A stretch of 64,000 nucleotides of DNA from a bacterium (GCA_016699995.1 CP064996.1:626963-690962); one strand, 5' to 3'. Shown: positions 5,504 through 61,116, numbered from the stretch's first letter. Numbers and translations: made by a program. Notes: generated from the sequence alone by a model not told the origin.

Positions 5504-6994
5504 TTAAATTGCTTTCTTAGTGTGCCAATCGGTTGCATCCTGATAGGCAGCTCCGACGTTAAAGACTTTTTGCTCGCCCCATTGCGGGCCGATAATTTGC
5601 AATCCCACCGGCATCTCTTTTTCTCCCCCATCGCTCGGCTTTGCAAAACCGCAGGGAACAGATAGCCCAGGAGTCCCTGCTAAAGAACCAGGGATATTCA
5701 ACTGATCGGCAATATAACCAAACAAGGGGTCGTTAGCTGCTTTGCCTAAAGGCAACGCTACATTCGGAGAACTCGGCGCTACTAACACATCTACCTGCTT
5801 AAATATTTCCTCGAACTCTCTGAGAATCAATCGGCGCACGCGCTGAGCTTTTTTGTAATAAGCATCGTAATAACCAGCAGATAACACATAGGTGCCGATC
5901 ATAATTCGGCGCTTGGCTTCGTCGCCAAAGCCTTCGGCACGGCTCTTCATATACACGTCCAATAAACTGCCTTCTTCTGATGTTGAATGGCCGTAACGGA
6001 TGCCATCATAACGCGCTAAATTAGATGATACTTCACTGGGACAAACAATAGCATAAACCAAAGAACCATATTTCGTGTTCGGCAAGCTCACATCGACAAT
6101 TTCTGCGCCCAATCCGCGCAGAACCTCGATCGCCTCCATCACTCTAGAACGCACATCTTCTTGCATACCCTCTATAAAGTACTCTTTAGGGACGCCAATT
6201 TTCATGCCTTTAATATCGGCATTGAGAAGCTTCGAGTATTCTGGAACTTCCATAGGTCCTGTTGTAGAATCTTTTTCGTCCTGTCCGCTAATAACTTCGG
6301 CAATCATCGCCAAATCGCGTACGCTCTGTGCCATCGCACCCATACTGTCTAATGAACTTGCCATCGCTGCTACCCCATAACGAGACACGCGTCCGTAAGT
6401 CGGCTTCCATCCGCTCACGCCAGTTAAAGATGCTGGTTGGCGAATGCTGCCACCGGTTTCTGTTGCCAAGGCCCAAGGAGCGAGCCCTCCCGCAACTGCA
6501 GCAGCGCTACCGCTGCTAGAGCCGCCTGGCATGCGAGTGGTATCCCAGGGATTGCGAGTCGCTCCGTAGTAAGAAGTTTCACCGCTAGAGCCGTGCGCAA
6601 ACTGATCCATATTGGCTTTGCCGATCATCACAGCTTTCTGTTCTTTCAATTTAGCAATTACAGTGGAGTCATAAGGAGGAATATAGTTATCCAAAATTTT
6701 CGATGCAGCCGTGGTGCGAATGCCTTTGGTTAAAAACAAATCTTTTGCCGCAAACGGAATGCCGCACAAAGGAGGGTTGCCGCCTTCTGCAGCAATATAT
6801 TCATCGGCCTCTTGCGCCTGACGCAAAGCATCTTCTTCGTCTACGGTAATGAACGCATTCAATTTATCCTGATCGCCGACCGGAGACAATTCTTTAATGC
6901 GTGCCAAAAAATATTTCGTCAGTTCCACCGACGAAATCTCTTTGCTATCTAATTTTTGACGCAGCTCATGCAGCTGCAGCTTTTCCCATTCCAT
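5504..6994 (-). CDS. gatA: Glu-tRNA(Gln) amidotransferase subunit A (amidase signature family)
   Basis: Amidase signature GGSSGGSAAAVA. Conserved Ser-cisSer-Lys region. 496 aa. Confidence 0.9.
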   Translation of the reverse strand: MEWEKLQLHELRQKLDSKEISSVELTKYFLARIKELSPVGDQDKLNAFITVDEEDALRQAQEADEYIAAEGGNPPLCGIPFAAKDLFLTKGIRTTAASKILDNYIPPYDSTVIAKLKEQKAVMIGKANMDQFAHGSSGETSYYGATRNPWDTTRMPGGSSSGSAAAVAGGLAPWALATETGGSIRQPASLTGVSGWKPTYGRVSRYGVAAMASSLDSMGAMAQSVRDLAMIAEVISGQDEKDSTTGPMEVPEYSKLLNADIKGMKIGVPKEYFIEGMQEDVRSRVMEAIEVLRGLGAEIVDVSLPNTKYGSLVYAIVCPSEVSSNLARYDGIRYGHSTSEEGSLLDVYMKSRAEGFGDEAKRRIMIGTYVLSAGYYDAYYKKAQRVRRLILREFEEIFKQVDVLVAPSSPNVALPLGKAANDPLFGYIADQLNIPGSLAGTPGLSVPCGFAKPSDGGEKEMPVGLQIIGPQWGEQKVFNVGAAYQDATDWHTKKAI

Positions 6995-7275
6995 TACAAA
7001 ATTGATTTCACTTTATAGTATCTATCTTTGCTCTGTGGAGCGTTTTTTGTTATATCGTCTTGGTATTCGATCATAACGGCTTTATCTGGGCGCACAACAT
7101 TTTCCAAACCAGTTACCGAAGAGACGATTTCCAGCCCTTCTGTATCGACATCTTTAAGCTCGTCTACATAATCCAAAACAGAAGACAGGTCGGTTTGGAA
7201 TTTTTCCACTTCCCCGTCTCGCAGCTCTATACGCGCTAATTGGGCGATTTTTTTGACTTCATCTGTACTTAACAT
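6994..7275 (-). CDS. gatC: Glu-tRNA(Gln) amidotransferase subunit C
   Basis: 93 aa. MLSTDEVKKIAQLARIEL...DVDTEGLE typical GatC. Start overlaps the gatA region, giving the gatCAB order. Confidence 0.85.
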   Translation of the reverse strand: MLSTDEVKKIAQLARIELRDGEVEKFQTDLSSVLDYVDELKDVDTEGLEIVSSVTGLENVVRPDKAVMIEYQDDITKNAPQSKDRYYKVKSIL

Positions 7276-7391
7276 AGCTTAATTATAATGAAATTATTCG
7301 AAAAAGAAAATACTGTATAGAGTGGTTCTAAGTATGGATTTAACCGCGAAAAATTGCTATACTTAGCCCAATCATTAATCTCTATGTATAT

Positions 7392-7940
7392 ATGTGGATT
7401 TTCTTAGGAATTATTGCGATTGCAGTAATCGCTATAATCTTTGTTTACAACTCGCTTATTCGCTCCCGCAATCGCGTGGACGAAGCATGGGCAGATATCG
7501 AAGTTCAGCTTAAGCGCCGCTATGACCTGATCCCTAACCTAGTAAATACCGTTAAAGGTTTTGCTGCGCAGGAATCCGGCGTGCTAGAACGCGTCACCGA
7601 AGCCCGCACCCGCGCGATGGGCGCGCACAACCCGGCCGAACAGGCTCAGGACGAAAACATGCTGTCCTCTACTTTAAAAAGCTTGTTTGCTGTTGCAGAA
7701 AACTATCCTGACCTAAAGAGTAACCAAAATTTTGCTCAATTACAGGCAGACCTTACTGACACAGAAAATAAGATTCAGGCCGCTCGCCGATTTTATAACG
7801 GTAACGTCCGCGACTTTAACACCAAGATCGAAGTCTTTCCTACTAACTTGTTTGCTTCCATGCTTGGCTTTACCAAGCGGGCGTTCTTCGACATCGACGA
7901 CAACGGCCCAGAAAGCCAGAATGTTGAAGTTAAGTTTTAA
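7392..7940 (+). CDS. lemA: LemA family membrane protein
   Basis: N-terminal TM then NSLIRSRNRVDEAWADIEVQLKRRYDLIPNLV, the LemA signature. Classically paired with the downstream HtpX-like protease. Confidence 0.85.
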   Translation: MWIFLGIIAIAVIAIIFVYNSLIRSRNRVDEAWADIEVQLKRRYDLIPNLVNTVKGFAAQESGVLERVTEARTRAMGAHNPAEQAQDENMLSSTLKSLFAVAENYPDLKSNQNFAQLQADLTDTENKIQAARRFYNGNVRDFNTKIEVFPTNLFASMLGFTKRAFFDIDDNGPESQNVEVKF

Positions 7941-7976
7941 ACTTCAATTTTCAAGTAATTAAGGATCAAAAGTCGC

Positions 7977-8876
7977 GTGCTCACTTACACAGAAATTGGT
8001 AAAAATAAGACCTACTCAGTTTTGCTGGTATTTATATTCCTAATCGTCATCATCGGGTTAGGCTGGTTTGCGTCGCAAATGTACAACAACCCGGCCATCC
8101 TAATCGGCGCTGTGATCTTTAGCTCGGTCTCTGCTTTGATTTCTTATTACTACTCAGACAAAATCACTTTAGCTATTTCTGGAGCTCAGCAAATTGATTT
8201 AAAAACCCAGCCGCAGCTCTACCAGCTGGTAGAAAATCTAACCATCACTGCCGGCCTGCCAATGCCGCGCGTGTATATCATAGAAGACACGGCATTAAAC
8301 GCTTTTGCTACCGGACGCAATCCCACCAATGCTGTCATCTGTGTTACGACCGGATTATTGCAGCGACTAGACAAGACCGAACTGGAAGGCGTACTAGCCC
8401 ACGAACTCTCCCACATTGGCAACTACGACATCCGTTTTATGACCTTAGTGGTGGTGTTGGTCGGCGTAATCACATTACTCGCCGACTGGATGCTGCGCCT
8501 TTCCTTATTCGGTGCAGGTGATGACGATAATAACAATAAAAACCCGATCTTCATGCTCATCGGAATCGTCTTAGTGATTGTCTCTCCTATCATCGCTATG
8601 CTTATCCAGCTCGCTGTCTCTCGCAAAAGAGAATTTTTAGCCGACGCATCGGGTGCACTACTTACTCGCTACCCAGAAGGGCTCGCATCCGCGTTAGAAA
8701 AAATCGCCGGCGATAAAGAACCGTTAGAAGCTGCTAATAAAGCTACTGCTCATCTATATATATCAAACCCGCTTAAGGAACACGAAGGCGATTCGCAGAG
8801 CTGGTTCGCTTCCTTATTCAACACTCATCCGCCAATCGAAGAGCGCATCAAGCGTTTGCGCGGGATGGGCAAATAA
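7977..8876 (+). CDS. htpX: M48-family zinc metalloprotease HtpX-like
   Basis: HELSHIGNYD (HExxH) zinc motif and four TM segments. 299 aa. Confidence 0.85.
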   Translation: MLTYTEIGKNKTYSVLLVFIFLIVIIGLGWFASQMYNNPAILIGAVIFSSVSALISYYYSDKITLAISGAQQIDLKTQPQLYQLVENLTITAGLPMPRVYIIEDTALNAFATGRNPTNAVICVTTGLLQRLDKTELEGVLAHELSHIGNYDIRFMTLVVVLVGVITLLADWMLRLSLFGAGDDDNNNKNPIFMLIGIVLVIVSPIIAMLIQLAVSRKREFLADASGALLTRYPEGLASALEKIAGDKEPLEAANKATAHLYISNPLKEHEGDSQSWFASLFNTHPPIEERIKRLRGMGK

Positions 8877-10563: not shown

Positions 10564-13116
10564 ATGAATAATTTTGCTTTTATTTTAGAAAGGCTTTCCA
10601 GCCGTGCCAAAAATGCGCTTATTGCAGCGCAGATGGTATCCGAAGAACTCCACCACGATCACATCGGGACGGAGCATTTATTGTTTGGGGTGGTTGCAGA
10701 AAAGTCCAGCTTTGCCGGGGAGATCTTAACCAAAGCCAAACTTACGCCAGATCTAATCAAATCAGAACTAGAACTTGTTAACCAAAATAACCAAATCACG
10801 GTTTGGAAACCGGTTCTTTCTGCGAATTTAAAAACCGCGATCGAAAAATCGGCTATCATCGCCAGCCAATACGGTTACCAATTTATCGGCACCGAACATT
10901 TCTTGTACGGACTCATTACCACAGAGCACAACCGAGCGCGGGTGATTTTATCTAAGCTTGGAGTTGACATTGGCGAACTTGACCACAACCTAATTACAGT
11001 TTTCGAAAATATTTCTAAATTCCCAGAGATGCCAAATGATGGCATGCCGGGCGGTGCGCAAAACCCAGACGGTCATATGCATCAGTCCCCTGTCGGACCA
11101 GATCCGAAGCGCGGCAACATGCTGGAATATTTTACGACCGACTTAACCAAGAAAGCCGCACAAGGAAATATTGATCCGGTTATTGGACGCAAAAAGGAAA
11201 TTGAACGCTTGGTGAGCATTCTTGGCCGACGTACTAAAAACAACCCGGTCCTCATCGGTGAAGCCGGCGTCGGTAAAACTGCTATTGTTGAGGGTTTGGC
11301 TTTAGCTATCGCCAACCGCGAAGTGCCAGATACTTTATTAGATAAAAAAATCATGGCGTTAGACTTAGCGCTGATTGTTGCCGGTTCGATGTTCCGCGGC
11401 GAATTCGAAAACCGCTTAAAGCAGATTATTGATGAAGTTAAAGCTAATCCAAACGTAATTCTATTTATAGACGAACTCCACACCCTGTCTGGCGCCGGAG
11501 CAACCACCGGCAGTTTAGATGCAGCTAACATCTTTAAGCCGGCCTTGGCACGCGGGGAGCTTCGCACCATTGGTGCGACTACTTTAGCCGAATACAAAAA
11601 GCACATCGAACATGACGCCGCCTTAGAGCGCCGCTTCCAGCCAATCTTGGTCGAAGAACCAAGCAAGGAAGAGGCTTTGGCTATTCTTAAAGGAATCCGC
11701 CCAAATTACGAAAAACACCATAACGTTCATATTACCGACGAAGCGCTGCAAGCAGCCGTAGACTTGTCCGACCGCTACATTCAGGATCATTTCCTGCCAG
11801 ACAAAGCTGTGGACCTAGTAGACGAAACTGCCGCGTTTTTGCGCAGCATTCACAGTAATTCAAAATTGGCCAAAACTAAGCGCAAAGTAGAAACCGAATT
11901 AGAGCAATTAGAAGAAGAGAAAACTAAAGCAGTGCTCTCACAAGACTTTACCACTGCCCTGCACCTGCGCGCACAGGAAGAGCGCCTGTTAGCTCAGAAA
12001 AAGGAACTGGAAACATTGAGCAAGGAAGACACAGGTCCGGTCTATTCCATCTCGGCTGAAGACATTGCCCACACAGTTTCTTTGATGACTAAAATCCCCT
12101 TAAAGAAGCTGGCCCAAAACGAAATCGGCAAGCTTACTAATTTAGAAAAGACTTTAAAGGCCCGTATTGTCGGCCAAGACGAAGCACTCGTCGAAATCGC
12201 CAAGACTATCCGCCGCTCCCGTGCCGGCTTAAACGACCCTAAACGCCCAATTGGCTCTTTCATGTTCCTCGGTCCGACCGGCGTGGGCAAAACCGAAACA
12301 GCCAAGATGATAGCGCAGGAAGTTTTCGAAGATGCCGATGCTCTCATCCGCGTAGATATGTCTGAATTTATGGAACGCCACAACGTTGCGCGCTTAATCG
12401 GCGCTCCGGCCGGCTATGTAGGATACGAAGAAGGCGGCCGCTTAACCGAGGCTGTTCGCCGAAAACCCTATGCAGTAATCTTGTTCGACGAAATCGAAAA
12501 AGCCCATCCCGAAGTGTTCAACGTTTTGCTTCAGATCTTAGAAGACGGCCAGCTAACTGACGCGCAAGGCAAGCGTGTCAACTTCGCCAATACGGTCATC
12601 ATTATGACTTCCAACTTGGGCATGCAGGAACTTAATACCGCCAGCGTCAAGATCGGCTTCGCAGACCGCGACGAACAGGTCACAGAAAAAGCCAAAATGG
12701 AAAAGGAATACGATCGCATCAAGGAAGGCTTGCTCGAAAAGCTTAGGAGAGACCTGCGTCCGGAATTCCTAAACCGCATCGACAAAGTGATTATCTTCCA
12801 CCCTCTCGGTATGGCTGACCTCAAACGCATTACCCAGCTACAGATTAGCGACCTTCAGAAGCGCCTAGATATTCAAAAGATAAGCTTAAAAACAACTCCA
12901 GCTCTGATAAAGTTCATCTCCGAAAAAAGCTTCGATCCGCTCCAAGGGGCACGCTATATTCGAAAAAATGTTCAGGATTTAATTAGCGACCCGCTGGCTG
13001 AACAGATCATTCAGCAAAACCTCAAAGAAGGCGCAACGATTACAGTTGGCGTAGACGGCGAAAAAGTTTCGTTTAAAACCGAAAAAAGCAAACGCGCCGC
13101 TGCTGTACCAGCGTAA
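10564..13116 (+). CDS. clpC: Clp/Hsp100 AAA+ chaperone ClpC/ClpB-type (two AAA modules, Clp_N repeats)
   Basis: Two N-terminal Clp_N repeats (HIGTEHLLFGVV; IGTEHFLYGLI). Walker A GEAGVGKTAIVEGLA and second GPTGVGKTETAK. Short middle coiled coil. 850 aa. Confidence 0.9.
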   Translation: MNNFAFILERLSSRAKNALIAAQMVSEELHHDHIGTEHLLFGVVAEKSSFAGEILTKAKLTPDLIKSELELVNQNNQITVWKPVLSANLKTAIEKSAIIASQYGYQFIGTEHFLYGLITTEHNRARVILSKLGVDIGELDHNLITVFENISKFPEMPNDGMPGGAQNPDGHMHQSPVGPDPKRGNMLEYFTTDLTKKAAQGNIDPVIGRKKEIERLVSILGRRTKNNPVLIGEAGVGKTAIVEGLALAIANREVPDTLLDKKIMALDLALIVAGSMFRGEFENRLKQIIDEVKANPNVILFIDELHTLSGAGATTGSLDAANIFKPALARGELRTIGATTLAEYKKHIEHDAALERRFQPILVEEPSKEEALAILKGIRPNYEKHHNVHITDEALQAAVDLSDRYIQDHFLPDKAVDLVDETAAFLRSIHSNSKLAKTKRKVETELEQLEEEKTKAVLSQDFTTALHLRAQEERLLAQKKELETLSKEDTGPVYSISAEDIAHTVSLMTKIPLKKLAQNEIGKLTNLEKTLKARIVGQDEALVEIAKTIRRSRAGLNDPKRPIGSFMFLGPTGVGKTETAKMIAQEVFEDADALIRVDMSEFMERHNVARLIGAPAGYVGYEEGGRLTEAVRRKPYAVILFDEIEKAHPEVFNVLLQILEDGQLTDAQGKRVNFANTVIIMTSNLGMQELNTASVKIGFADRDEQVTEKAKMEKEYDRIKEGLLEKLRRDLRPEFLNRIDKVIIFHPLGMADLKRITQLQISDLQKRLDIQKISLKTTPALIKFISEKSFDPLQGARYIRKNVQDLISDPLAEQIIQQNLKEGATITVGVDGEKVSFKTEKSKRAAAVPA

Positions 13117-14450: not shown

Positions 14451-14482
14451 ATAAAAAACACGGAAATATTCCGTGTTATTTG
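14451..14482. terminator. hairpin terminator (serves minus-strand 14476 gene)
   Basis: AACACGGAA-ata-TTCCGTGTT flanked by A/T runs on both strands. Confidence 0.5.
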
Positions 14483-14793
14483 TCTTCAAAGCGATAGTAC
14501 ATTACTGCACGCCGCGGGATCCTGCGGATAATATGACGCGTTTTACCCGGCGCTATCTTTTCTACTTTGCCTCGATCTTCCGCCGTGATATTACAGATGG
14601 TAACAAACATCACCTCTTTCATCTTGTTGGTTACTGAAAATTTAGTTGAATAATTTGCTGCGCGTCCCAAGTTCACGTTGAGTTTGTTGGAAATAGACGC
14701 ACCTGTAGCGTGGGCCAAATCGAAGGTAATCGCGTCCCACTTAAACCCATCTTCTAAATCGTAGCCTTGCCCAAACCCTGCTGGAAAACCCAT
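14476..14793 (-). CDS. hypothetical protein (105 aa), divergent from the Ubl operon
   Basis: GGAGGA RBS 7 nt upstream. No recognisable domain. Confidence 0.6.
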   Translation of the reverse strand: MGFPAGFGQGYDLEDGFKWDAITFDLAHATGASISNKLNVNLGRAANYSTKFSVTNKMKEVMFVTICNITAEDRGKVEKIAPGKTRHIIRRIPRRAVMYYRFEDK

Positions 14794-14845
14794 AATCTTT
14801 CCTCCTGAAAAATCAATTACTAACTAAAGAGTTTACCGCTCTTTA

Positions 14846-14876
14846 ATGGTATCGTCAAGAATGGTATCGTCAAGCC
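14846..14876. repeat. perfect tandem direct repeat AATGGTATCGTCAAG x2 in divergent intergenic region
   Basis: 14846-14860 and 14861-14875 are identical 15-mers, located between the 14476(-) gene and the E2-like gene. Candidate operator. Confidence 0.6.
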
Positions 14877-14964: not shown

Positions 14965-16641
14965 ATGGATCTTAACGTTGTAATGACTTCGGCAAGAATA
15001 CCAGCCGTAGTGAGCCAAGCTACTGAAGAAGTAGCCAAAAGGGTTCTATCGAGAGCTATGAAAGCTTCTAATGTTCATACGGTAAATATCATAGACCGGG
15101 ATACACAGCCACTTAAGCCACGCTATCCCGATGGCGGCTTCAACATTTTTCTAGACAGTTACATACTGACGCCTTACTCAATGTCCGGCAAAGTATTGGC
15201 CCCGGATCAGATCTGGAAAACCACCTCCAATATGTATGACAATCATCTCATGTACACCCCTTCGGGTGAAGGCATGCTGATAATTGATTCTACCAGCGAC
15301 ACGGTCGTAGCTGAGTATACGGACTACAACCTATATATCTTACTTGATCCGTATGCCCTATGCTGCATTGCAAACAGAGGATGGTTGTATATCTTTGAGC
15401 AAATTCTCAAGGAAACTCTGCTATATCTTCCAGCCGGACCTCCGCAAATTTGCGAGATCTACGATGGCCGGTTCAGGATCCCTAAGATTGCCGACATTAA
15501 GGATATGGTCGGCGACCTCAGATACCTACGCGATCAGTTAGCCAAACATGTAGGAACAGGGACAGAATTGTACGATCAACTGGCAAAAATTTCCGATACG
15601 GACCCAAGCGAACGGGTACTAAAACAGCTCGCCAGGATCCCGGAAATTAAAACCATGTCCATAAAAAAGCAAAGCATTACAATCGTCACCTATACCATGT
15701 ACGCTGAAGATCGTAGCCGGCATAAAATTCATGAACTTGGCCCTTTCCGGATAACTTTGAACTTCGGCGAAAATGCCAGTGCGGAATTCAGAAATCAAGG
15801 GCACAGATATGGCGGTTACGGACACCCTCACGTTGATAGGGACCGGGAAGGATACTGGTGCATGGGAGAAGGCTCAGCTATCCTTGACTTGCTAAAAACC
15901 TTTGAGTTCGAAGCAGCTATCTTGTTTGCCATCAAGGCAATTGAGTCAGTCAATCCTCGTCCTGACTATCTTAGCATCTTAAGACAGTTTCCCATTGTGG
16001 AAGAAAGGTTAAAATACCCCAAAGCAGAAGCAGAGTTGGACGAACACTCAAAAGAATCCTTTCTAAAAATGTACAGCGACGATAATGACGGCATTCACAA
16101 GCGGATTCTAGGTAAAATTCGTAATTTCCAAAACTCCGCGAAAGGTGCTCAAAGTGAATTATTTCTAAGCGTATTCGGTTCCACTCTCATAAAAGAGCTT
16201 GCCGACCCGAATGGTGCCAGGAACTTAACCGAGAAGCTACAAAGCCAGATTAAGGAGCTTAAAGACTTCCCATGGGTAGATAGAGTCACTATTCGAGACG
16301 ATCTTGTTGGCGTTCGAACTGTCTCGATGGTCATTACAGATACAGACACCCAGGAAAAATTCAGAGTCGGACCATTTGGTATTGCTTATAATTTCTCTGA
16401 TGGCACAGTGAAGGTGCAAAGCGAACGACCGTTCATGGTCAACGGGCAAATCTACCAGGCTCCCCAGATCCCCAATGAAGATGGCGACCTGATACTCAGC
16501 CAGCTCACGATGACTCTCCCAGAACTGATGGGAGAGCTAGAAGTAGCAACCTGTACAGAGCTGTTTGTAAATTACATCGCCACTTTCTCTAGCGTAACCC
16601 TCGGAGTCAAACCCCCGGAAACGCTAAGAGTGATTAAATAG
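14965..16641 (+). CDS. large multi-domain protein with central E2/UBC-like domain (HPH...C active-site loop)
   Basis: RBS AGGAGGAAGTATG. Residues about 240-330: beta-meander (SITIVTYTMY, HKIHELGPFRITLNF), then GHPHVDRDREGYWCMGEGSAILDLL, then helix ending ...AIKAIESVNP. This matches the UBC HPN-x(n)-G-x-I-C-L...PNP topology. The flanking N-terminal (~230 aa) and C-terminal (~220 aa) regions are unassigned. Confidence 0.6.
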   Translation: MDLNVVMTSARIPAVVSQATEEVAKRVLSRAMKASNVHTVNIIDRDTQPLKPRYPDGGFNIFLDSYILTPYSMSGKVLAPDQIWKTTSNMYDNHLMYTPSGEGMLIIDSTSDTVVAEYTDYNLYILLDPYALCCIANRGWLYIFEQILKETLLYLPAGPPQICEIYDGRFRIPKIADIKDMVGDLRYLRDQLAKHVGTGTELYDQLAKISDTDPSERVLKQLARIPEIKTMSIKKQSITIVTYTMYAEDRSRHKIHELGPFRITLNFGENASAEFRNQGHRYGGYGHPHVDRDREGYWCMGEGSAILDLLKTFEFEAAILFAIKAIESVNPRPDYLSILRQFPIVEERLKYPKAEAELDEHSKESFLKMYSDDNDGIHKRILGKIRNFQNSAKGAQSELFLSVFGSTLIKELADPNGARNLTEKLQSQIKELKDFPWVDRVTIRDDLVGVRTVSMVITDTDTQEKFRVGPFGIAYNFSDGTVKVQSERPFMVNGQIYQAPQIPNEDGDLILSQLTMTLPELMGELEVATCTELFVNYIATFSSVTLGVKPPETLRVIK

Positions 16642-16646
16642 AACAA

Positions 16647-16670
16647 CCCCTGTTATTTACAGGGGTTTTT
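16647..16670 (+). terminator. intra-operon rho-independent terminator/attenuator
   Basis: CCCCTG-ttattta-CAGGGG plus TTTTT directly after the E2-like stop. Followed by TTGACA(16673)-N17-TACTAT. Confidence 0.6.
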
Positions 16671-16672
16671 AC

Positions 16673-16701
16673 TTGACAAAAGGCTTCTCCCCCGCTACTA
16701 T
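16673..16701 (+). promoter_or_regulatory. sigma70-like promoter for JAB-E1-Ubl genes
   Basis: TTGACA at 16673-16678, a 17 nt spacer, then TACTAT at 16696-16701. RBS AAGGAGGA at 16713-16720. Confidence 0.45.
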
Positions 16702-16727
16702 AAACAGCTATAAAGGAGGACATATGC

Positions 16728-17759
16728 ATGGGCAAAAAGAATAAGCCAGACAAGAAATCGGAAGATGGTCCTGAGATGGAAACTGCTAATAATGAATCGG
16801 CAAATAAAGCCAAAAACGCAGCCGAGGCGGAGCAAGCAGAGGAAGCGGTAAGCGAAGCTGTCGATGATGGGGAGGTTCTGGAATTACCGGAAGCACCACA
16901 AGCGGAAACCAAAACTGCAGGCCAGCAAAACGAAGAAACAATAATCGAAGTTCTGGAAGCCGAAGTTGTTGTGGAGACCAAGCCTGAACAAGCAGAACCA
17001 GATGAAGAGGAAGAGGAAGGAAAAGAGGAACCTCCTCAATATACCTATCACTGGGATCTTGCCAGGCGACCGGCTCAAGATTTTAAAAAACCTCGTTACT
17101 TTGCAACCAGCGCCGAATTGCTCAGAGTTCCTGCAACGATTCCCGTTATCCACGTCAGCTTATTCGCAGCTATGAAGATGTATCTCATGCTCAGTTATAT
17201 CGAGCAAGAGATTGGCTGGCTGGGAACGGCATACAGGCACAACGAGAAAGATTTTCGAATCGCCGATGTATTTATCTTTCATCAAGATATCAGTGCAGGG
17301 CACTCGGAGCTGTCAAAAACCAGCATGGCTGACTTCATCTGTGAAATGATGGGCACACCAGATGGTGAAGAGATCTTCAATAACACCAAATTTTGGGGAC
17401 ACTCTCATGGCTCCGGCGGCACATTCCCCTCCGGCCAAGACGACACGCAGGCTGAGTCCTTCGCTCAGGGCGGAGAAGATTTCTTTATTCGAGGAATTTT
17501 CAATCGACAAGGGGATATGAACTTCAGCGTCTACGACTGGGAAAAAGGGATAGCCTTTCACAGGATACCTTGGCTCATTCAAGCTGCGCCTGCGGATATG
17601 CCGGCTGATACCTATGACCGACTGAAAGAGTTTATTCTGCAGGAGATGAAAACCAAAGTCGTCCATCGCCGAAAGGTATACAAACACAAGCGCGGACGAA
17701 TATCTAAACGCGGTAAATCATGGATAGAACGGACGTTCGACACATGGCTTGGAGGATAA
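16728..17759 (+). CDS. JAB/MPN (JAMM) metalloprotease with acidic low-complexity N-terminal region
   Basis: Complete JAMM motif: E (IEQEIGW) ... HSHGSGGTFPSGQDD, which is HxH-x7-S-xx-D. The N-terminal ~100 aa is E/A/K-rich. Confidence 0.8.
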   Translation: MGKKNKPDKKSEDGPEMETANNESANKAKNAAEAEQAEEAVSEAVDDGEVLELPEAPQAETKTAGQQNEETIIEVLEAEVVVETKPEQAEPDEEEEEGKEEPPQYTYHWDLARRPAQDFKKPRYFATSAELLRVPATIPVIHVSLFAAMKMYLMLSYIEQEIGWLGTAYRHNEKDFRIADVFIFHQDISAGHSELSKTSMADFICEMMGTPDGEEIFNNTKFWGHSHGSGGTFPSGQDDTQAESFAQGGEDFFIRGIFNRQGDMNFSVYDWEKGIAFHRIPWLIQAAPADMPADTYDRLKEFILQEMKTKVVHRRKVYKHKRGRISKRGKSWIERTFDTWLGG

Positions 17760-17762
17760 AGG

Positions 17763-18461
17763 ATGCTGGATACAATAAGGCACATTGATGTTTTTTCTGC
17801 GGCTCAGTTTGGAGACCTTCGCGTTGACATTATCGGCGCTGGCGCTACCGGCTCCCGGATAGCGTTAGAGCTGGCAAAGCTAGGCCTCTCGAACATTCAC
17901 GTTTGGGATTTTGACAAAATCGAATCCCATAATGTCCCCAACCAAGTCTACGGCAACAATCATATTGGCGAAGTCAAGGTGGAGGCATTAAAGAGGATCA
18001 TCGAAGAGCAAACGGGCACCGTCATCACTTGCCACGAGGCAAGAGTCGACGGCACTCAGGAACTTGGAGATGTGGTATACTTGCTAACTGACACTATGGC
18101 CTCCAGGCAGGAAATCTGGAAGAATGGTCTGAGGTACAAGCCTCGGACTAAACTGATGATAGAAACTCGCATGGGTGCCAATAGCGGTCGAGTCTACTGT
18201 GTTAACCCTTCTTCTCCCAAGGACGTGAAGGGATGGGAAGCAACTTTATATTCTGATGATGTGGCAGTAGTTTCTGCCTGCGGAACTAGCATAACAGTTG
18301 GAGCAACCGCAGCTATGGTTACGGGCTATGCCGTTTGGCAGCTGATCCGTTGGCACAAAGCAGAAACAAGTTTAAAGGAAAACAAGGAACCTGATGACCG
18401 ACCCGAGAATGAATTAATTTTTTCGGTTCAGCCAGCAATGGTTAATACGTCTGACTTTTAG
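17763..18461 (+). CDS. E1-like ubiquitin-activating enzyme (ThiF/MoeB family, minimal)
   Basis: Rossmann IIGAGATGSRIALELAKLG. ThiF motif WDFDKIESHNVPNQ (D-x-D-x-hE-xSNLNRQ). Candidate catalytic Cys in SACGTSITVGATAAM. RBS GGAGGATAAAGGATG. Confidence 0.8.
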   Translation: MLDTIRHIDVFSAAQFGDLRVDIIGAGATGSRIALELAKLGLSNIHVWDFDKIESHNVPNQVYGNNHIGEVKVEALKRIIEEQTGTVITCHEARVDGTQELGDVVYLLTDTMASRQEIWKNGLRYKPRTKLMIETRMGANSGRVYCVNPSSPKDVKGWEATLYSDDVAVVSACGTSITVGATAAMVTGYAVWQLIRWHKAETSLKENKEPDDRPENELIFSVQPAMVNTSDF

Positions 18462-18471
18462 GAGGAAAGAA

Positions 18472-18738
18472 ATGATCGAAGAAAATGACAATGCTAATGG
18501 TCTCACTAAAACAATTACCGTCAAAATGGGATCCTACCCGGGGGGCAAGGTTAAACCCTACACCTTTCCCGAGGGCACCGATTATGGCGAAGCACTTCGT
18601 CAGGCCAACTTGACGCGAGGCAATAACGTTGAGGCTCTCGATATTCGAGTTAACGGCCAGAAGATCAGCAGCCCCGATGCTCTGATCGAAGAAGGAGATC
18701 AAATTCTCGTCTTCGAGAACATCCGAGGCAATAATTAA
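18472..18738 (+). CDS. ubiquitin-like beta-grasp protein (ThiS/MoaD-like), C-terminus ...ENIRGNN
   Basis: 88 aa. RBS AGGAGGAAAGAAATG. KTITVKMG...VNGQKISSPDALIEEGDQILVFENIRG resembles ThiS/MoaD/Ubl sequences ending at a Gly. Two residues (NN) follow the Gly. Confidence 0.55.
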   Translation: MIEENDNANGLTKTITVKMGSYPGGKVKPYTFPEGTDYGEALRQANLTRGNNVEALDIRVNGQKISSPDALIEEGDQILVFENIRGNN

Positions 18739-18765: not shown

Positions 18766-18794
18766 CAAAGCACGGTTTACTGTGCTTTTTTTAT
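18766..18794 (+). terminator. rho-independent terminator of Ubl operon
   Basis: AAAGCACGG-ttta-CTGTGCTTT followed by TTTTTTATTT. Confidence 0.7.
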
Positions 18795-33583: not shown

Positions 33584-36500
33584 TTATACTAAGTCGGGAG
33601 GATTAAAATCCGGCGGTAAAGGGTTTGCGCCAGTAGTTGTATTGTTCGTTCCGGGGTTTGTTGTCCGACCACCTGTGCCGGTTCCACCACCAGGAGGTGT
33701 GCCAGGATTAGCCGGTGGCACATACGGTCTAGCCATCGTCGGACCGCCTCCTGCTATAGGCCCGCCTCCGCCTCCCGGTGCGCCAGGAGCGCCAGGGGCT
33801 CCGGGAGTTCCAGCTGGGCCAGCTGGGCCTGCTGGGCCAGCTCCGCCCGCTGGACCTGTTCCACCCCTGCCTCCACGTCCACCGGTTCCGCCAGTCGCAC
33901 CAGCTGCACCCGTGGCGCCTGTTGCGCCAGGGGCTCCAGCAGCGCCGCGTGGACCTGCTACAAATTTCCTGCCTGCGACATCCTCTAATGCGGCTCTAAT
34001 CTCCTTGCCCATATTTTTGCCCATTGCCTTAAAATCATCCTCAGTGATCACATCCAAAATCTGACCAGCTCTCTCCTTAGACATATCGCGTTTTACCTGT
34101 TTGGCCTTCTCTGTAGTATTCAATGCAGACAACCATTTAACCAACCCTGGGGTGGCTTCTTCTCTATTAGTTGTAGGATTGAAATGCTTAATATCGCCTT
34201 CTTTAACATCTTTGATTCCCAGCTTTGCAAACCGTTTTTCTACGTCCACCATTTGCGCCTGGTAAGACTTGATGATGCCGCCGCCACTAGGCATGTTCTT
34301 TACGGCATATCCCAAAGGAATAGCGCCGTTTTTAGCTGCGGTATTGGAAATCTCTCTAAATACGTTGGTCTGGTTGCGTTCGGAAGTCTTAAACTTATCT
34401 TTCACCATTTTCTCCAAGCCGACAATATTGTACTGGTAGGGATCCCCATTATCATCCTTCATGTTCTTCATAAGCTTGTCGGCCATTCCTGTTTCGGCAA
34501 TCTGCTTAACATATGCTCGCGCTTGTACAAAATTATTCTTCTTTAAAGCATCTAAGAAACCGGCTTCCAGCTGATCATAATCTAAATCCAAATCGGCAAT
34601 TTCCTTCTTTTGCTTCATAACCTCCATAGCTTCTTCCTTCTCCAAAGCCTTAGAATATGGGCGCTGGTATTTTTCTGCTTCTGTATTTAGTCGGGTAACT
34701 TCTTTTAGCAAAGCCTCCTTTACGCCATCGTTCATAGGGCCGTTGTAGCCCAGCTCTCGGCGCTTCGCTTGATCATTATCAATTACAGAAGTAGCATCGG
34801 CAATTTTCCTCTGCAGTTCATCCGTTATTTTTGTGGTGTCCACTACTGGTTCGATAGGATCACCTGGTGCCATTAATCCCTGCTGAACAAGCCCGCCTGG
34901 ATCGGTGACTATGCCGGTAGCCGGGTCTACGACTTCCGGATGATCAACCTTCATGTCCAAATTAACCTGCAAGTCTGCCAGGCTCACTTCGGTCGCTCCG
35001 GTAGCAACTGCATTGTTTACTGCATCTTCCAGAACATCGCGGCGAGCCTTAACTTGAGCTTCCTGATACTTAAGATCGCGGTTGCCAGGATCCTTCAAAA
35101 CAGCCTGTTCTGCCTTTTCGGAATCTTCATTCAATTTCGCAAGCTCGTCCTGAGCCTGAGCCAAAGTCAAACGGCCGGCTGATAGATCATTATATTTCTG
35201 CTGATCAGCGTCACGCTGGTCTGCTACGCCCCTAATTTCATCGTCATTCTTGATTTCCGTAGCAATGCGCTGATTGCGTTTTGCTTCTTCGAGCATAGGC
35301 GCACCAGGATCTTTTCCGCGCAGCTTGCGCCATGCCCACTGGGCACCCATGATTTTGTTTTCACCAAACGGCTGCAAGAAATTACTAACTTTCTTAAAGT
35401 CATCTGCAAACCGGCCGTTCATCTGTTCCTTTGGAATGTCGAAGTAACCTTTCTTAGCCGCCTTTAAGAACTCTTTCGGCCTTGCTACTGCGCGAATGGC
35501 TTTTTGCAAGCCAGGCTTCTTGTCTATGCCAAACAGCTTAGAGTTAGCCAAACTGTCTGCGCCGGTATCCTTAGCCCATTTGCCGCCCCAAACGGCTGCT
35601 TTGCCGGCGCCGCCGGCCACGGCCAATGGAGCGGTTTTGGTAACGAAGTCAAAGCCCTTCTTGGCAAACTTAACAATCTGCTGGGCCCCAACCGTACCGC
35701 TGCTTTGGGCAAACTTCATACCAAGGAACAGGAAAAACAGCACGACGAAATGCGAAATAACTGTAATTACATACTCAGCCAGCTCTCCGGAAATCCCTCC
35801 TAGCAAGAAGGTGCGATCGCGTCCCGCTACCACTGTATCGCCATTCTTGGAAGCAAAAGTTGTAGCCATTAGAGCGGCAATATTTAGGAAGAATGCCAAT
35901 ATGGGAACCGTAAAGGCATGCTTGATAAACATATCCCACCATTGATCCCAGTACTTTTTTGTATCCGGTAAAATTCTGGCAACGTAGGCTATTGGCGACA
36001 CCATATACAAAATCCACAGCACAACCAGCCTGATGATAATGAAGGCGATCAGTGCGACGAAGGCAAAAAATGCAGCTATTGCCAACACAAGTAGTATAAT
36101 AGGCTTGGTAAGATCACTAGCACTGGCATCAACCGAGAAGTTGCTGCTATCCGTAACTCCTGCACCGCTGCTTTGACCCCTAAAAAACTTGATAGGATCA
36201 ACCATCAATTTTTGACCGAGCGCTTCTATGACCTTGCTTTCTGCTGGCAGGAACTGAGCCTGCACAGTGTCGGCGATACCAACTACTCCTTGCGCAATGA
36301 CCAAGCTAAAATTGACCAGCAATGCCATCAGCACGAGCCACAAAATAAAGCCCCGGGTTTTGCCAGAATCATCGACTTGAAACAGAACACGCAGACCCAT
36401 CCATAACAACGCGACTATGAACCCGATGTTTGCTAGGTTGCGCATAATGACCCAGCCCGGGTAAATGAAGTTTACGAACTCATCTTTATGAGCGTAAATA

Positions 36501-38188
36501 TTTAGCAATGCGTTCAAGACCGGCACAAGAATGAACGCGAAGATCCAATAAATTACACCAGTAATTAACAGAACAATGTAAGAAATGACCCTGCGGATAA
36601 AGTTGAATAGATCGCTTCCGTTAGATTTTTCAGGATCTTCGTTGGAACTGGTGGTTTGGGTCACTGTGTCCGCAAAGCCAAATTTTGCATAATTGTCATC
36701 ATCGCATTTTGCTTTTTCTTCGTCAGTAGTTTTTTCCGCCTTACAAGCAGCCTTAATATCGTCTATTTTTTCGTAAACTTCTACAGTAAATTTTTCTAAT
36801 CCACCAGATCCAGCAATTAAAATAACACCATTGCTAACCAACAAGTTAAAAATCGAGATAGGGATACTGCCCTTTGTGCCGCCTATGGCAGGCAAAGCAA
36901 CGAATTCCGCAGAGCCATAAGGCTTACCAGCCTCGGGGGTTTTTGTTGTATCTACCTTGCTTAGCCATGCCTTAGATTTCAATAACGGGCTGTAATCGTA
37001 CCCTCCCGTCGGAGGGATGTACTCCGCCTGAGAAGGATCCCCCAAATCACCAGTGCTGTGCTTTGAGCTAAAAATTAATCCACTACAATCAGTACCAGTA
37101 AAAGTCGGTAGACAAGCGATCTTGCTCTTCCCCTTAACAGACGAAGCATACCCAAAATATATAACACTGCCGATGTACTTAGGAGTAAAATCTACCCCCG
37201 TCCAGCTATCGTCTTTTTGAGGCAGGGTAAAATACTGGAGTTTACCTAGCGGAGTACCACCCCATTCCACATGGACTTTATCCAGACCGCCAGTACCGGC
37301 AAATCTCATATCCCCGTCTGTTTTTAGAACGCGATATTTTTTTCTTAGGCCATACCCGTCTTTATTGGCCTTTATGGCAATAGATATCTTTTGATAATCA
37401 ACAGTTTGGGTATTATCGGTGTCACCATCCCCGCTGCCTTCCACATTTGGCAAGTCTCGAGCTGGGGGGCTATTATCCGTTTTATCCTTATTATGCTGAA
37501 TAGTCTGATTTGCCAACCAAGTTCCGGACCTGTTTGAACCGCCATACATATAAGCGTACAAGTAATATTCAGACCGGTACGACCCGCGTATGCTTCTAAC
37601 GCTCTGTTCCAATTTTTCGACAGTAACACCATTCTTGCGGCAATGAAACCCGTACGAATTATTCGCTTCGTCATAATACATCTTGGCCGTACAGAACAGT
37701 TCGTAATTTGTAGGGCGAACTGTGGGTATATAAGAAGTCAAACCTAACGCTGCAACATACGCATAAACCTCAAAAGTATAACTATTTTCCTTATTTTGCT
37801 CCTTACATTTATCTGCCAATTCCTTAGTAATCGGAACCTTCATATAAATATCGAATGGTTCCTTAGTACCTACAGTGTCTTTGCTCAGCAACATCTGGTA
37901 GCCGCTGCTGATGACGCCTGCTGTGTCAAAAATACGGCCAATAGAAACATTGGTACAGTCTACTGCCGCTTGAGCTTCCGGTATAGATGTTAGTGATTCA
38001 AAAACAGCTCTACCGTCTGAATTAGGTGAAATAAGACTGAGAAAAGGCAAAAACAAAGAAGCGATCAGAATCCCCAGGACAGTTTTCTGGAAGATTCCAA
38101 TGCCTCTTTTACTATTCCTGCTGCCGGCTTTATTCCGCAGTTTTTGAGTCAAAAATTGAATGAATTTTGGTATTGATTTCTGTATCAC
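33584..38188 (-). CDS. giant VirB6/TrbL-like polytopic membrane protein with large ectodomain and collagen-like Gly-X-Y C-terminal tail
   Basis: 1534 aa. N-terminal signal/TM. A ~520 aa extracellular region. A ~300 aa block of at least 6 TM helices (VirB6-like: LLITGVIYWIFAFILVPVL..., LVLMALLVNFSLVIAQGVVG...). A long coiled-coil cytoplasmic region. The C-terminal ~110 aa are GPRGAAGAPGATGATGAAGATGGTGGRGG...GTPGAPGAPGAPGGGG. Confidence 0.7.
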   Translation of the reverse strand: MIQKSIPKFIQFLTQKLRNKAGSRNSKRGIGIFQKTVLGILIASLFLPFLSLISPNSDGRAVFESLTSIPEAQAAVDCTNVSIGRIFDTAGVISSGYQMLLSKDTVGTKEPFDIYMKVPITKELADKCKEQNKENSYTFEVYAYVAALGLTSYIPTVRPTNYELFCTAKMYYDEANNSYGFHCRKNGVTVEKLEQSVRSIRGSYRSEYYLYAYMYGGSNRSGTWLANQTIQHNKDKTDNSPPARDLPNVEGSGDGDTDNTQTVDYQKISIAIKANKDGYGLRKKYRVLKTDGDMRFAGTGGLDKVHVEWGGTPLGKLQYFTLPQKDDSWTGVDFTPKYIGSVIYFGYASSVKGKSKIACLPTFTGTDCSGLIFSSKHSTGDLGDPSQAEYIPPTGGYDYSPLLKSKAWLSKVDTTKTPEAGKPYGSAEFVALPAIGGTKGSIPISIFNLLVSNGVILIAGSGGLEKFTVEVYEKIDDIKAACKAEKTTDEEKAKCDDDNYAKFGFADTVTQTTSSNEDPEKSNGSDLFNFIRRVISYIVLLITGVIYWIFAFILVPVLNALLNIYAHKDEFVNFIYPGWVIMRNLANIGFIVALLWMGLRVLFQVDDSGKTRGFILWLVLMALLVNFSLVIAQGVVGIADTVQAQFLPAESKVIEALGQKLMVDPIKFFRGQSSGAGVTDSSNFSVDASASDLTKPIILLVLAIAAFFAFVALIAFIIIRLVVLWILYMVSPIAYVARILPDTKKYWDQWWDMFIKHAFTVPILAFFLNIAALMATTFASKNGDTVVAGRDRTFLLGGISGELAEYVITVISHFVVLFFLFLGMKFAQSSGTVGAQQIVKFAKKGFDFVTKTAPLAVAGGAGKAAVWGGKWAKDTGADSLANSKLFGIDKKPGLQKAIRAVARPKEFLKAAKKGYFDIPKEQMNGRFADDFKKVSNFLQPFGENKIMGAQWAWRKLRGKDPGAPMLEEAKRNQRIATEIKNDDEIRGVADQRDADQQKYNDLSAGRLTLAQAQDELAKLNEDSEKAEQAVLKDPGNRDLKYQEAQVKARRDVLEDAVNNAVATGATEVSLADLQVNLDMKVDHPEVVDPATGIVTDPGGLVQQGLMAPGDPIEPVVDTTKITDELQRKIADATSVIDNDQAKRRELGYNGPMNDGVKEALLKEVTRLNTEAEKYQRPYSKALEKEEAMEVMKQKKEIADLDLDYDQLEAGFLDALKKNNFVQARAYVKQIAETGMADKLMKNMKDDNGDPYQYNIVGLEKMVKDKFKTSERNQTNVFREISNTAAKNGAIPLGYAVKNMPSGGGIIKSYQAQMVDVEKRFAKLGIKDVKEGDIKHFNPTTNREEATPGLVKWLSALNTTEKAKQVKRDMSKERAGQILDVITEDDFKAMGKNMGKEIRAALEDVAGRKFVAGPRGAAGAPGATGATGAAGATGGTGGRGGRGGTGPAGGAGPAGPAGPAGTPGAPGAPGAPGGGGGPIAGGGPTMARPYVPPANPGTPPGGGTGTGGRTTNPGTNNTTTGANPLPPDFNPPDLV

Positions 38189-60728: not shown

Positions 60729-61116
60729 GGGGATGCCGGATTTCGACAGGACTTCGACATCGCTCTATATGCAAGACGAGCCAGCTTGCAAGCTCGTAAA
60801 TCTTACAAGCAACCATAAGTGTAAACTCATGGAACAAGGTCGTTACCGCATTTAAAAATGCGCAACTTGCACCTGCGTTCGCTTAACATTTAGGCAAACG
60901 CCTGGTCCTCTGCCCCGCTCTGGGCAGAGATCCGCCAGATTATTTTGAGCTATAGTGTTGTTGTCCGATATATGCAATAACACCGAAATTTTATATATCG
61001 ACCATTAGCTTAGTTGTTCGTTGTAAGGCTAGTGGTAACTTAAACGAACTAATCTTGTGAACAATGGAACGGTGAAAAAGACTTGGACGCGGGTTTAACT
61101 CCCGCCATCTCCACCA
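60729..61116 (+). ncRNA. ssrA: transfer-messenger RNA (tmRNA, ssrA)
   Basis: 5' GGGGATGCCGGATTTCGACAGG (E. coli has GGGGCUGAUUCUGGAUUCGACGGG). 3' GGACGCGGGTTTAACTCCCGCCATCTCCACCA (E. coli has GGACGCGGGUUCAACUCCCGCCAGCUCCACCA). Acceptor stem has the G3:U wobble. smpB lies 4 kb upstream. Candidate tag ORF GCA TTT AAA AAT GCG CAA CTT GCA CCT GCG TTC GCT TAA (AFKNAQLAPAFA*) at 60848-60896. Confidence 0.85.

Follow-up and report, generated by a model that had tools for sequence, protein, structure and literature searches.

Four consecutive plus-strand genes, located at positions 14965-18738 of a bacterial DNA stretch of 64,000 nucleotides (GCA_016699995.1, CP064996.1:626963-690962; this whole stretch is called the window hereafter), make up what is, with a probability of about 0.72, a self-contained ubiquitin-like conjugation cassette which works without an E3. 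The cassette is complete in the window and consists of four separate genes in the order E2-like carrier protein (E2L), JAB/JAMM metallopeptidase, ThiF-type E1 and ubiquitin-like tag (Ubl). The open reading frames (ORFs) had been proposed at these coordinates, with the same four part assignments, by a first-pass annotation made from the sequence, and all four assignments were upheld here. The motifs quoted in it were likewise recovered on translation, namely HPHVDRDREGYWC at 15823-15861 in gene 1, HSHGSGGTFPSGQD at 17400-17441 in gene 2, and GAGATG at 17835-17852 together with DFDKIESHNVPNQ in gene 3. The evidence is given below for each component, followed by the linkage of the four families in other genomes and in viral contigs.

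The E2-like carrier protein

Gene 1 (14965-16641, + strand, 558 amino acids (aa)) encodes a protein which is laid out as an N-terminal domain (aa 1-165, 14965-15459), a coiled coil, an active UBC-like domain (aa 212-348, 15598-16008), a long helix and a second UBC-like domain having no Cys (aa 425-545, 16237-16599). The full-length protein was modelled by AlphaFold2 from a 73-sequence alignment with a mean confidence (pLDDT) of 91.6 and a template-modelling score (pTM) of 0.80, and the excised domain aa 212-348 was modelled at pLDDT 93.6. The central domain of gene 1 is thus confidently predicted to adopt the UBC/E2 fold, which is defined by an N-terminal helix, an antiparallel beta-meander, an active-site loop and helices at the C-terminus. 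When its profile was compared with PDB sequences, UbcH7 accounted for nine of the ten matches (E about 0.08). In the profile alignment the family residues G-H-P-H-V stand opposite Y-H-P-N-I of UbcH7, and the family Cys stands opposite the catalytic Cys86, which places the Cys of the YWCMGE segment at the E2 catalytic position. The HPN-type motif of the family therefore carries His in place of Asn (HPH, aa 287-289), and the predicted catalytic residue is Cys299 (codon 15859-15861; motif and Cys at 15823-15861).

The Cys at the catalytic position is invariant among close relatives, and the motif (A/H/G)PH...C.G with the Cys inside a UBC-like domain was found in 79 of 80 loci. A word-indexed homology search gave three relatives of gene 1 (29-34% identity), all of them within the same four-gene order but with differing flanks; repeating it with the 73-sequence alignment returned the same four proteins and no further ones. 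An exhaustive profile search gave 1391 representatives of the family at E<=1e-3, counted at 50% clustering. The core shared by the family consists of the N-domain in 1 to 5 tandem copies, the coiled coil and a domain bearing the motif N-L-T-R...(A/H)-P-H-(V/I)...G-x-x-C-(L/M)-G-N...E-S-V-N.

The two domains which flank the active one had been described in the first-pass annotation as being of unknown function, and this holds in part only. The N-domain, whose tandem copies show up as repeated stretches at profile positions 40-160, is family-specific and showed no similarity to the UBC-like domain, PDB sequences or Pfam; it may be a module for recognition of a target or partner. The C-terminal 220 aa, on the other hand, contain the second UBC-like domain. 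The two UBC-like halves of gene 1 match each other by BLASTP (E=1e-5) and by hhalign (probability 99.6%, E=3.9e-24, 130 columns), and these alignments mark the C-terminal domain and the active one as paralogues. It has no Cys, and QAPQI replaces GHPHV; because of the missing Cys and of QAPQ in place of HPH, it is called here UEV-like, after the ubiquitin E2 variants. The Cys-less domain is present in Melainabacteria as a separate gene of about 285 aa beside a larger E2-like gene.

The JAB peptidase and the minimal E1

Gene 2 (16728-17759, + strand, 343 aa) encodes the JAB/JAMM metallopeptidase. Glu161 (17208-17210) and the H225-S-H227-x7-S235-x2-D238 motif (17400-17441) are invariant in the aligned relatives, and the HxHx7Sx2D pattern is intact in all 57 tabulated JAB homologues. 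Weak Pfam JAB matches were found in five of seven relatives, and the best PDB sequence matches, Rpn11 and BRCC36, are also weak (about E=0.24), so that its place among the JAMM peptidases is read from the motif and not from a family score. An N-terminal extension of about 105 aa (16728-17042), highly acidic and of low complexity, is absent from the relatives. Other JAB relatives are extended at the C-terminus, with PDZ domains in locus L006 and with lengths of 325-706 aa in Melainabacteria. A Gly-Gly at the C-terminus of JAB was considered as a conserved feature, being present in 5-6 of 7 sequences, but was rejected as it is not kept across the 57 homologues.

Gene 3 (17763-18461, + strand, 232 aa) is the only one of the four genes that scores above a curated cut-off, with Pfam ThiF PF00899 at E=9e-19 (67.9 bits against a cut-off of 28.1); genes 1, 2 and 4 have no match above cut-off in Pfam, PADLOC, NCBIfam or PHROGs. 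The protein has the features of a ThiF-type Rossmann fold (GxGxxG, Mg-binding Asp, Arg/Lys finger). Among PDB entries its profile matched ThiF over the full length (3.6e-9), MccB (3.6e-8) and PaaA (1.5e-7), followed in order by UBA3, MoeB, TcdA, Uba1, UBA5 (E about 8e-5), Cap2 and BubCD (3.4e-4). Residues G25, G27, D49, D51, N60, Q61, K72, D110, R115 and C173 are invariant in 80/80 cassette-linked E1s, and Cys173 (18279-18281) lies opposite Cys184 of ThiF in the profile alignment. The protein is a single adenylation domain; as it has neither CxxC zinc motifs nor a separate Cys domain, it is classed with the minimal E1s such as ThiF, MoeB and UBA5.

Among the curated libraries gene 3 matched only generic ThiF/E1 models. 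Its scores against the NCBIfam equivalogs of ThiF, MoeB and MoeZ are far below the cut-offs (e.g. 63 against 159 and 33 against 266), and the same is true for the 6A-MBL model NF058523 (44.9 against a cut-off of 320) and for the PRTRC model TIGR03736 (30 against 144.75). The PADLOC "E1-E2" (Cap2-type) models match it through their E1 half only.

The tag and its C-terminus

Gene 4 (18472-18738, + strand, 88 aa) ends in I-R-G-N-N at 18724-18735. Its profile matches are SAMP2 (6.9e-5; 5lda is a SAMP2 chain), MoaD (4e-4) and ThiS (9e-3), with a Pyrococcus SAMP2-like protein also matched, and Pfam ThiS matches 16 of 29 members of the tag family. By these profile matches gene 4 is a ThiS/MoaD/SAMP2-like beta-grasp tag.

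Nearly all members of the family end in x-G-N plus 0-4 residues (R-G-N-N for the tag of the window), the ends GA, GQ, SN, AN and GG being rare; the C-terminal Gly-Gly of ubiquitin-like modifiers is thus not found in this tag. Exact head-to-tail poly-tags occur in several loci (L057 and L075 with three units each, L063, L069, L006, L033, L037 and L040), with junctions which read ...K-G-N|Q/V-I-S-V..., and some Saccharibacteria tags are fused to a longer C-terminal protein (L039, L045 and L047). Both arrangements require a processing peptidase, and this need explains the constant presence of JAB. The three fusion proteins (L039 5746-6360, L045 5675-6649, L047 6124-6936) are 204-324 aa long and carry the GN-ended tag at the N-terminus, after which come another beta-grasp-like domain, this one having no GN, and a helical tail rich in Ala and Glu.

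Two readings of the Asn were weighed. In the favoured one, which is somewhat better than even, JAB would cut after the Gly and the Asn would be a cap, by analogy with BilC, whose cut in BilA, between Gly97 and Ala98, falls one residue short of the end (PMC10557695). In the other, which we consider doubtful, the Asn is itself the mature reactive residue, so that the tag would be activated and conjugated via its C-terminal Asn and the E1 would adenylate Asn, possibly through succinimide chemistry as in microcin C7 synthesis. In favor of this second reading the Asn is nearly invariant, most tag genes end exactly after Gly-Asn, and in profile alignments the family Gly aligns with the penultimate Gly of SAMP2/MoaD, which puts the Asn at the usual place of the reactive Gly. 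A ThiF-like enzyme which adenylates a C-terminal Asn is also documented in MccB (PMC12250964).

The same family resemblances bear on a sulfur-carrier or cofactor pathway, in which a ThiS/MoaD-like carrier, a ThiF/MoeB-like enzyme and a JAMM peptidase would act together as in CysO-Mec+ or QbsCDE. The tag is closest to SAMP2, MoaD and ThiS and the E1 is closest to ThiF, and sulfur-carrier systems assisted by a JAMM peptidase are known. The pathway is nonetheless scarcely probable: the equivalog scores of gene 3 given above are far under the cut-offs, no rhodanese, cysteine synthase, thiamine or molybdopterin genes (thi, moa, cys) were found in the loci examined, a UBC-like protein with a conserved Cys is linked in 79/80 loci, and the tags occur as poly-tags and end in Gly-Asn rather than Gly-Gly. 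The conjugation cassette remains the preferred reading.

Linkage and distribution of the cassette

The distribution was surveyed by two scans. The chromosomal scan, done with the E1 alignment as query on one genome per species, gave 50 loci, which belong to Saccharibacteria, Paceibacterota, Parcubacteria, Kerfeldbacteria, Falkowbacteria and Peribacteria, with many in Melainabacteria/Obscuribacterales (often two per genome) and single ones in Thermoanaerobaculia, Flavobacteriaceae, Gammaproteobacteria, Bdellovibrionota and Planktothrix bins. The IMG/VR scan gave 66 loci; the cassette is whole in about 30 of these, on contigs which are 25-208 kb long. The cassette is thus not specific to Patescibacteria, being common also in Melainabacteria and in viral contigs.

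Hidden Markov model scans of six-frame ORFs found all four families together wherever the flank was sufficient. At least three gene orders occur with unrelated flanks (E2L-JAB-E1-Ubl; Ubl-E2L-E2L-JAB-E1; Ubl-JAB-E1-E2L-E2L). Eighty fetched loci have E2-like, JAB and E1 genes, and a tag was detectable in 67 of them; such co-occurrence of the four families in 67/80 independent loci in varied order makes the linkage more than chance. The E1 keeps 55-70% identity across phyla; for the E2-like protein the figure is only 20-34%, and its N-domain is present in 1 to 5 copies.

In four viral contigs (36-53 kb) the cassette adjoins genes for a single-stranded DNA-binding protein (SSB) and DnaB helicase, and a primase gene also follows in one viral locus, the one where that ORF was scanned. 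Between the E1 and the SSB gene the 36-53-kb contigs have a conserved protein of 282-369 aa (L074 5023-5871, L076 3851-4699, L083 6659-7768) which matches PHROG families of unknown function and may be either a further component or a target. The 188-kb viral contig IMGVR_UViG_3300014204_000114 has two complete cassettes (L067 and L069) about 7 kb apart, and several Melainabacteria genomes have two cassettes of unlike gene order. In cultured phages (Flavobacterium FpV4-like, Xanthomonas/Erwinia jumbo) only a distant "ThiF" was found, which is 30-33% identical; it may belong to a different system, because its neighbors were not recognized as E2-like, JAB or Ubl. The loci most closely related to that of the window (L002 5535-7818, L003 4863-7132, L008, L010, L011 and L012) have extra genes next to the cassette, namely one for an NAD_binding_8-like protein of about 510 aa in five of them and a DUF6008 membrane-protein gene in four, both being present in L002, L003 and L010; neither gene is in the window.

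Beyond the four families a single gene is recurrent, that of a ClpC/ClpB-like ATPase (750-890 aa), which lies directly 3′ of the E1, at a distance of 30-200 bp, in 18 Melainabacteria/Obscuribacterales loci (the Clp-like genes in L013-L038 lie at about 5700-8500). This gene brings in the possibility that the tag is a signal for unfolding or degradation, whose conjugates would be sent to a ClpC-type AAA+ unfoldase with ClpP, like the ubiquitin-proteasome or Pup-Mpa pathways. The N-domain of the Melainabacteria Clp is divergent, having no Clp_N or UVR Pfam match and only 25% identity to the N-domain of the ClpC in the window, and the latter gene (10564-13116; Clp_N, UVR and AAA_2 domains) lies 1.8 kb 5′ of the cassette on the same strand. 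A different AAA ATPase is directly 5′ of the cassette in L001, and the Patescibacteria cassettes are set among housekeeping genes. Against this, the 18 loci may represent one ancestral arrangement in a single order, no Clp-like gene is present in the fetched flanks of the second Melainabacteria cassette type, of the viral cassettes or of the other non-Melainabacteria chromosomal loci, and the nearness of ClpC in the window could be chance, with three genes and a tRNA between. We consider such a role in host proteostasis, through Clp-linked proteolysis or regulation, improbable.

Proposed mechanism and role

For the conjugation cassette the following order of events is proposed. The JAB peptidase would mature the tag by removing the residues after the conserved Gly(-Asn), cutting poly-tags and fusions in the relatives, and would probably also reverse the conjugation. 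The minimal E1, which like ThiF, MoeB or UBA5 is probably homodimeric, would then adenylate the C-terminus of the tag using ATP, and it may hold the tag on Cys173. From there the tag would be handed, in a thioester relay, to Cys299 in the active UBC-like domain, and gene 1 would transfer it to lysines of its targets. The variable N-domain would pick the target and the Cys-less UBC copy would position the tag or the acceptor, as Mms2 does for Ubc13. A choice of target by the E2 without an E3 has been described for Bil (PMC11601596).

Several points weigh against conjugation. The full-length model of gene 1 has no significant Foldseek match, the sequence link of gene 1 to E2 (E about 0.08) is weak when taken alone, gene 2 scores 16.6 bits with Pfam Prok-JAB, which is below the cut-off of 25, and the tag ends in Gly-Asn and not in Gly-Gly, so that the activation chemistry may differ.

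A part in phage-host or mobile-element conflict, in either direction, is the most likely role, because the E2-like protein evolves fast against a conserved E1, the cassette moves as a unit from one genomic context to another, and it is present on viral contigs; the proposal is tentative and its odds fall a little short of even. It is opposed by the lack of a PADLOC match for any component but the E1, by the Clp ATPase after the E1 in the 18 Melainabacteria loci, which points to proteolysis, and by the genes which surround the cassette in the window and in the other Patescibacteria loci, these being housekeeping and not defence genes.

Expression signals and neighborhood in the window

Strong ribosome-binding sites had been reported for the four genes, and AGGAGG or GGAGG is indeed placed 6-8 nucleotides (nt) 5′ of all four start codons. 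The shared terminator reported at 18766 also exists as an intrinsic-terminator-like hairpin with a T-run at the end of the operon on the + strand, which by pattern scan and inspection of the sequence is positioned at 18767-18788. Two signals between genes 1 and 2, both found by pattern scan, had been overlooked, namely a second hairpin (16645-16667), which lies directly 3′ of the gene 1 stop codon, and a promoter-like site (16673-16701). This hairpin has a 9-bp stem and is followed by the sigma-70-like match TTGACA-17-TACTAT (region 16645-16701). The two signals may uncouple the expression of gene 1 from that of genes 2-4, so that the level of gene 1 may differ from theirs.

About 90 nt 5′ of gene 1 there is a perfect 15-nt tandem direct repeat (AATGGTATCGTCAAG, two copies, 14845-14874), which overlaps minus-strand promoter-like matches and could serve as an operator or as a divergent promoter. 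A 105-aa ORF with a strong AGGAGG (14476-14793, - strand) lies between a tRNA-Ser gene and the cassette; it has no Pfam match and is not kept beside the cassette in other loci.

The neighbors of the cassette in the window are genes of housekeeping type, namely those for an extracytoplasmic function (ECF) sigma factor, a DUF5667 protein, tRNA-Ser and RecG. Between ClpC and the cassette are located a minus-strand gene, comF, the tRNA-Ser gene and another minus-strand ORF. The proposal that the locus is an acquired island flanked by tRNA genes was rejected, since the repeats of 30-50 nt are stretches which two tRNA-Ser isoacceptor genes have in common, no integrase was found at the locus, the GC content is ordinary, and the neighbors are those just named. 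The base composition of the window is flat. Elsewhere in the window there are a 1534-aa ORF (33584-38188, - strand) and a tmRNA gene (60729-61116) whose tag peptide is VNSWNKVVTAFKNAQLAPAFA by ARAGORN.

Significance

Proof that type II CBASS, Bil and Bub are genuine conjugation pathways is recent, and each bacterial ubiquitination-like system has brought new chemistry along with ideas on the origin of eukaryotic ubiquitination. The present cassette adds a further large family, with its 1391 carrier-protein representatives, and it is the first such family that we could find which has its center in Patescibacteria and Melainabacteria and occurs on phage-like contigs as well. It joins the smallest type of E1, a fused E2-UEV pair and polyubiquitin-style genes in one system. 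The near-invariant Gly-Asn end of the tag raises a chemical question that can be tested, and an Asn-activated ubiquitin-like cascade would follow if the second reading of the Asn were true. In Melainabacteria the tight linkage with a Clp unfoldase likewise gives a way to test for a bacterial pathway of tagging and unfolding.

The cassette family has no model in Pfam, NCBIfam, PADLOC or PHROGs. For want of a curated model its members are annotated as "hypothetical protein" plus "ThiF", and comparative and defence-system surveys therefore miss the family. No paper on the cassette was found, and nothing relevant was found in the literature linking candidate phyla radiation (CPR) bacteria, Patescibacteria or Melainabacteria to ubiquitin-like systems, the coverage of both searches being incomplete.

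Comparison with known systems

The cassette resembles Bil in its working but stands outside Bil, Bub, CBASS, 6A-MBL and PRTRC by the membership tests of these systems. Membership in the antiphage systems Bil (class 6d) or Bub (class 6e) had been suggested in the first-pass annotation. The gene content is the same as that of Bil/class 6d, namely Ubl, E2, JAB and E1 (PMC1779556, PMC11601596), and as in type I/II Bil (BilABCD, Iyer-Burroughs-Aravind class 6d) these are four separate genes with no E3. A one-residue cap after the reactive Gly which is removed by JAB is documented for BilA (PMC10557695), the short tail being taken off by BilC at Gly97|Ala98, and the cassette probably works via Cys thioesters, again as in Bil. 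The E1 of Bil, however, has the architecture IAD-AAD-CYS (PMC11601596), whereas that of the cassette is one 232-aa domain with the Cys inside the adenylation fold. Class 6d E2s are without the His of HPN (PMC1779556), whereas the family here keeps (H/A)PH, and its E2 retains HPH within a 558-aa protein which also has the N-domain and the Cys-less UBC copy. No match with the Bil sequence models was obtained, PADLOC giving none for the E2-like protein, JAB or Ubl, and the tag, which is ThiS/SAMP2-like, has a Gly-Asn end.

Bub (class 6e/DUF6527) works through Ser/Tyr oxyesters and has a DUF6527 protease; the cassette has neither. The Ubl-E2 or JAB-E1 fusions of the Bub type are absent, the four separate genes recur, and E1 and E2 both have a conserved Cys in place of Ser/Tyr as the predicted catalytic residue. 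Type II CBASS has in Cap2 an E1-E2 fusion which conjugates a cGAS-like enzyme without any Ubl, an arrangement that does not occur here, and BubCD and Cap2 are only distant matches of the E1 (E about 1e-4). Membership in Bil or Bub is thus very improbable, and the four genes are better read as a separate conjugation cassette.

MccB, the second-best PDB match of the E1, resembles the cassette enzyme as a ThiF-like enzyme that activates a C-terminal Asn, that of MccA in the synthesis of microcin C7 (PMC12250964). Its substrate is a heptapeptide and not a beta-grasp protein, it works with no E2, JAB or thioester, and its N-terminal peptide-clamp domain is absent from the cassette E1. The Ubc13-Mms2 pair is comparable as an E2-UEV pair; unlike that pair, the E2 and UEV-like domains of the cassette belong to a single polypeptide or, in Melainabacteria, are the products of neighboring genes, and each of the two has its closest relative in the other.

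The archaeal SAMP/UbaA/JAMM1 system is like the cassette in its tag, which the cassette tag resembles through SAMP2, and in its JAMM peptidase partner, but SAMPylation proceeds without an E2. In the UBA5-UFC1-UFM1 pathway the tag precursor is trimmed by a dedicated protease, as is proposed here, though UFM1 uses a cysteine protease and an E3. The similarity between UBA5 and the cassette E1 is at superfamily level only (E about 8e-5), and the two enzymes share the same plan, a minimal adenylation domain working without a separate Cys domain.

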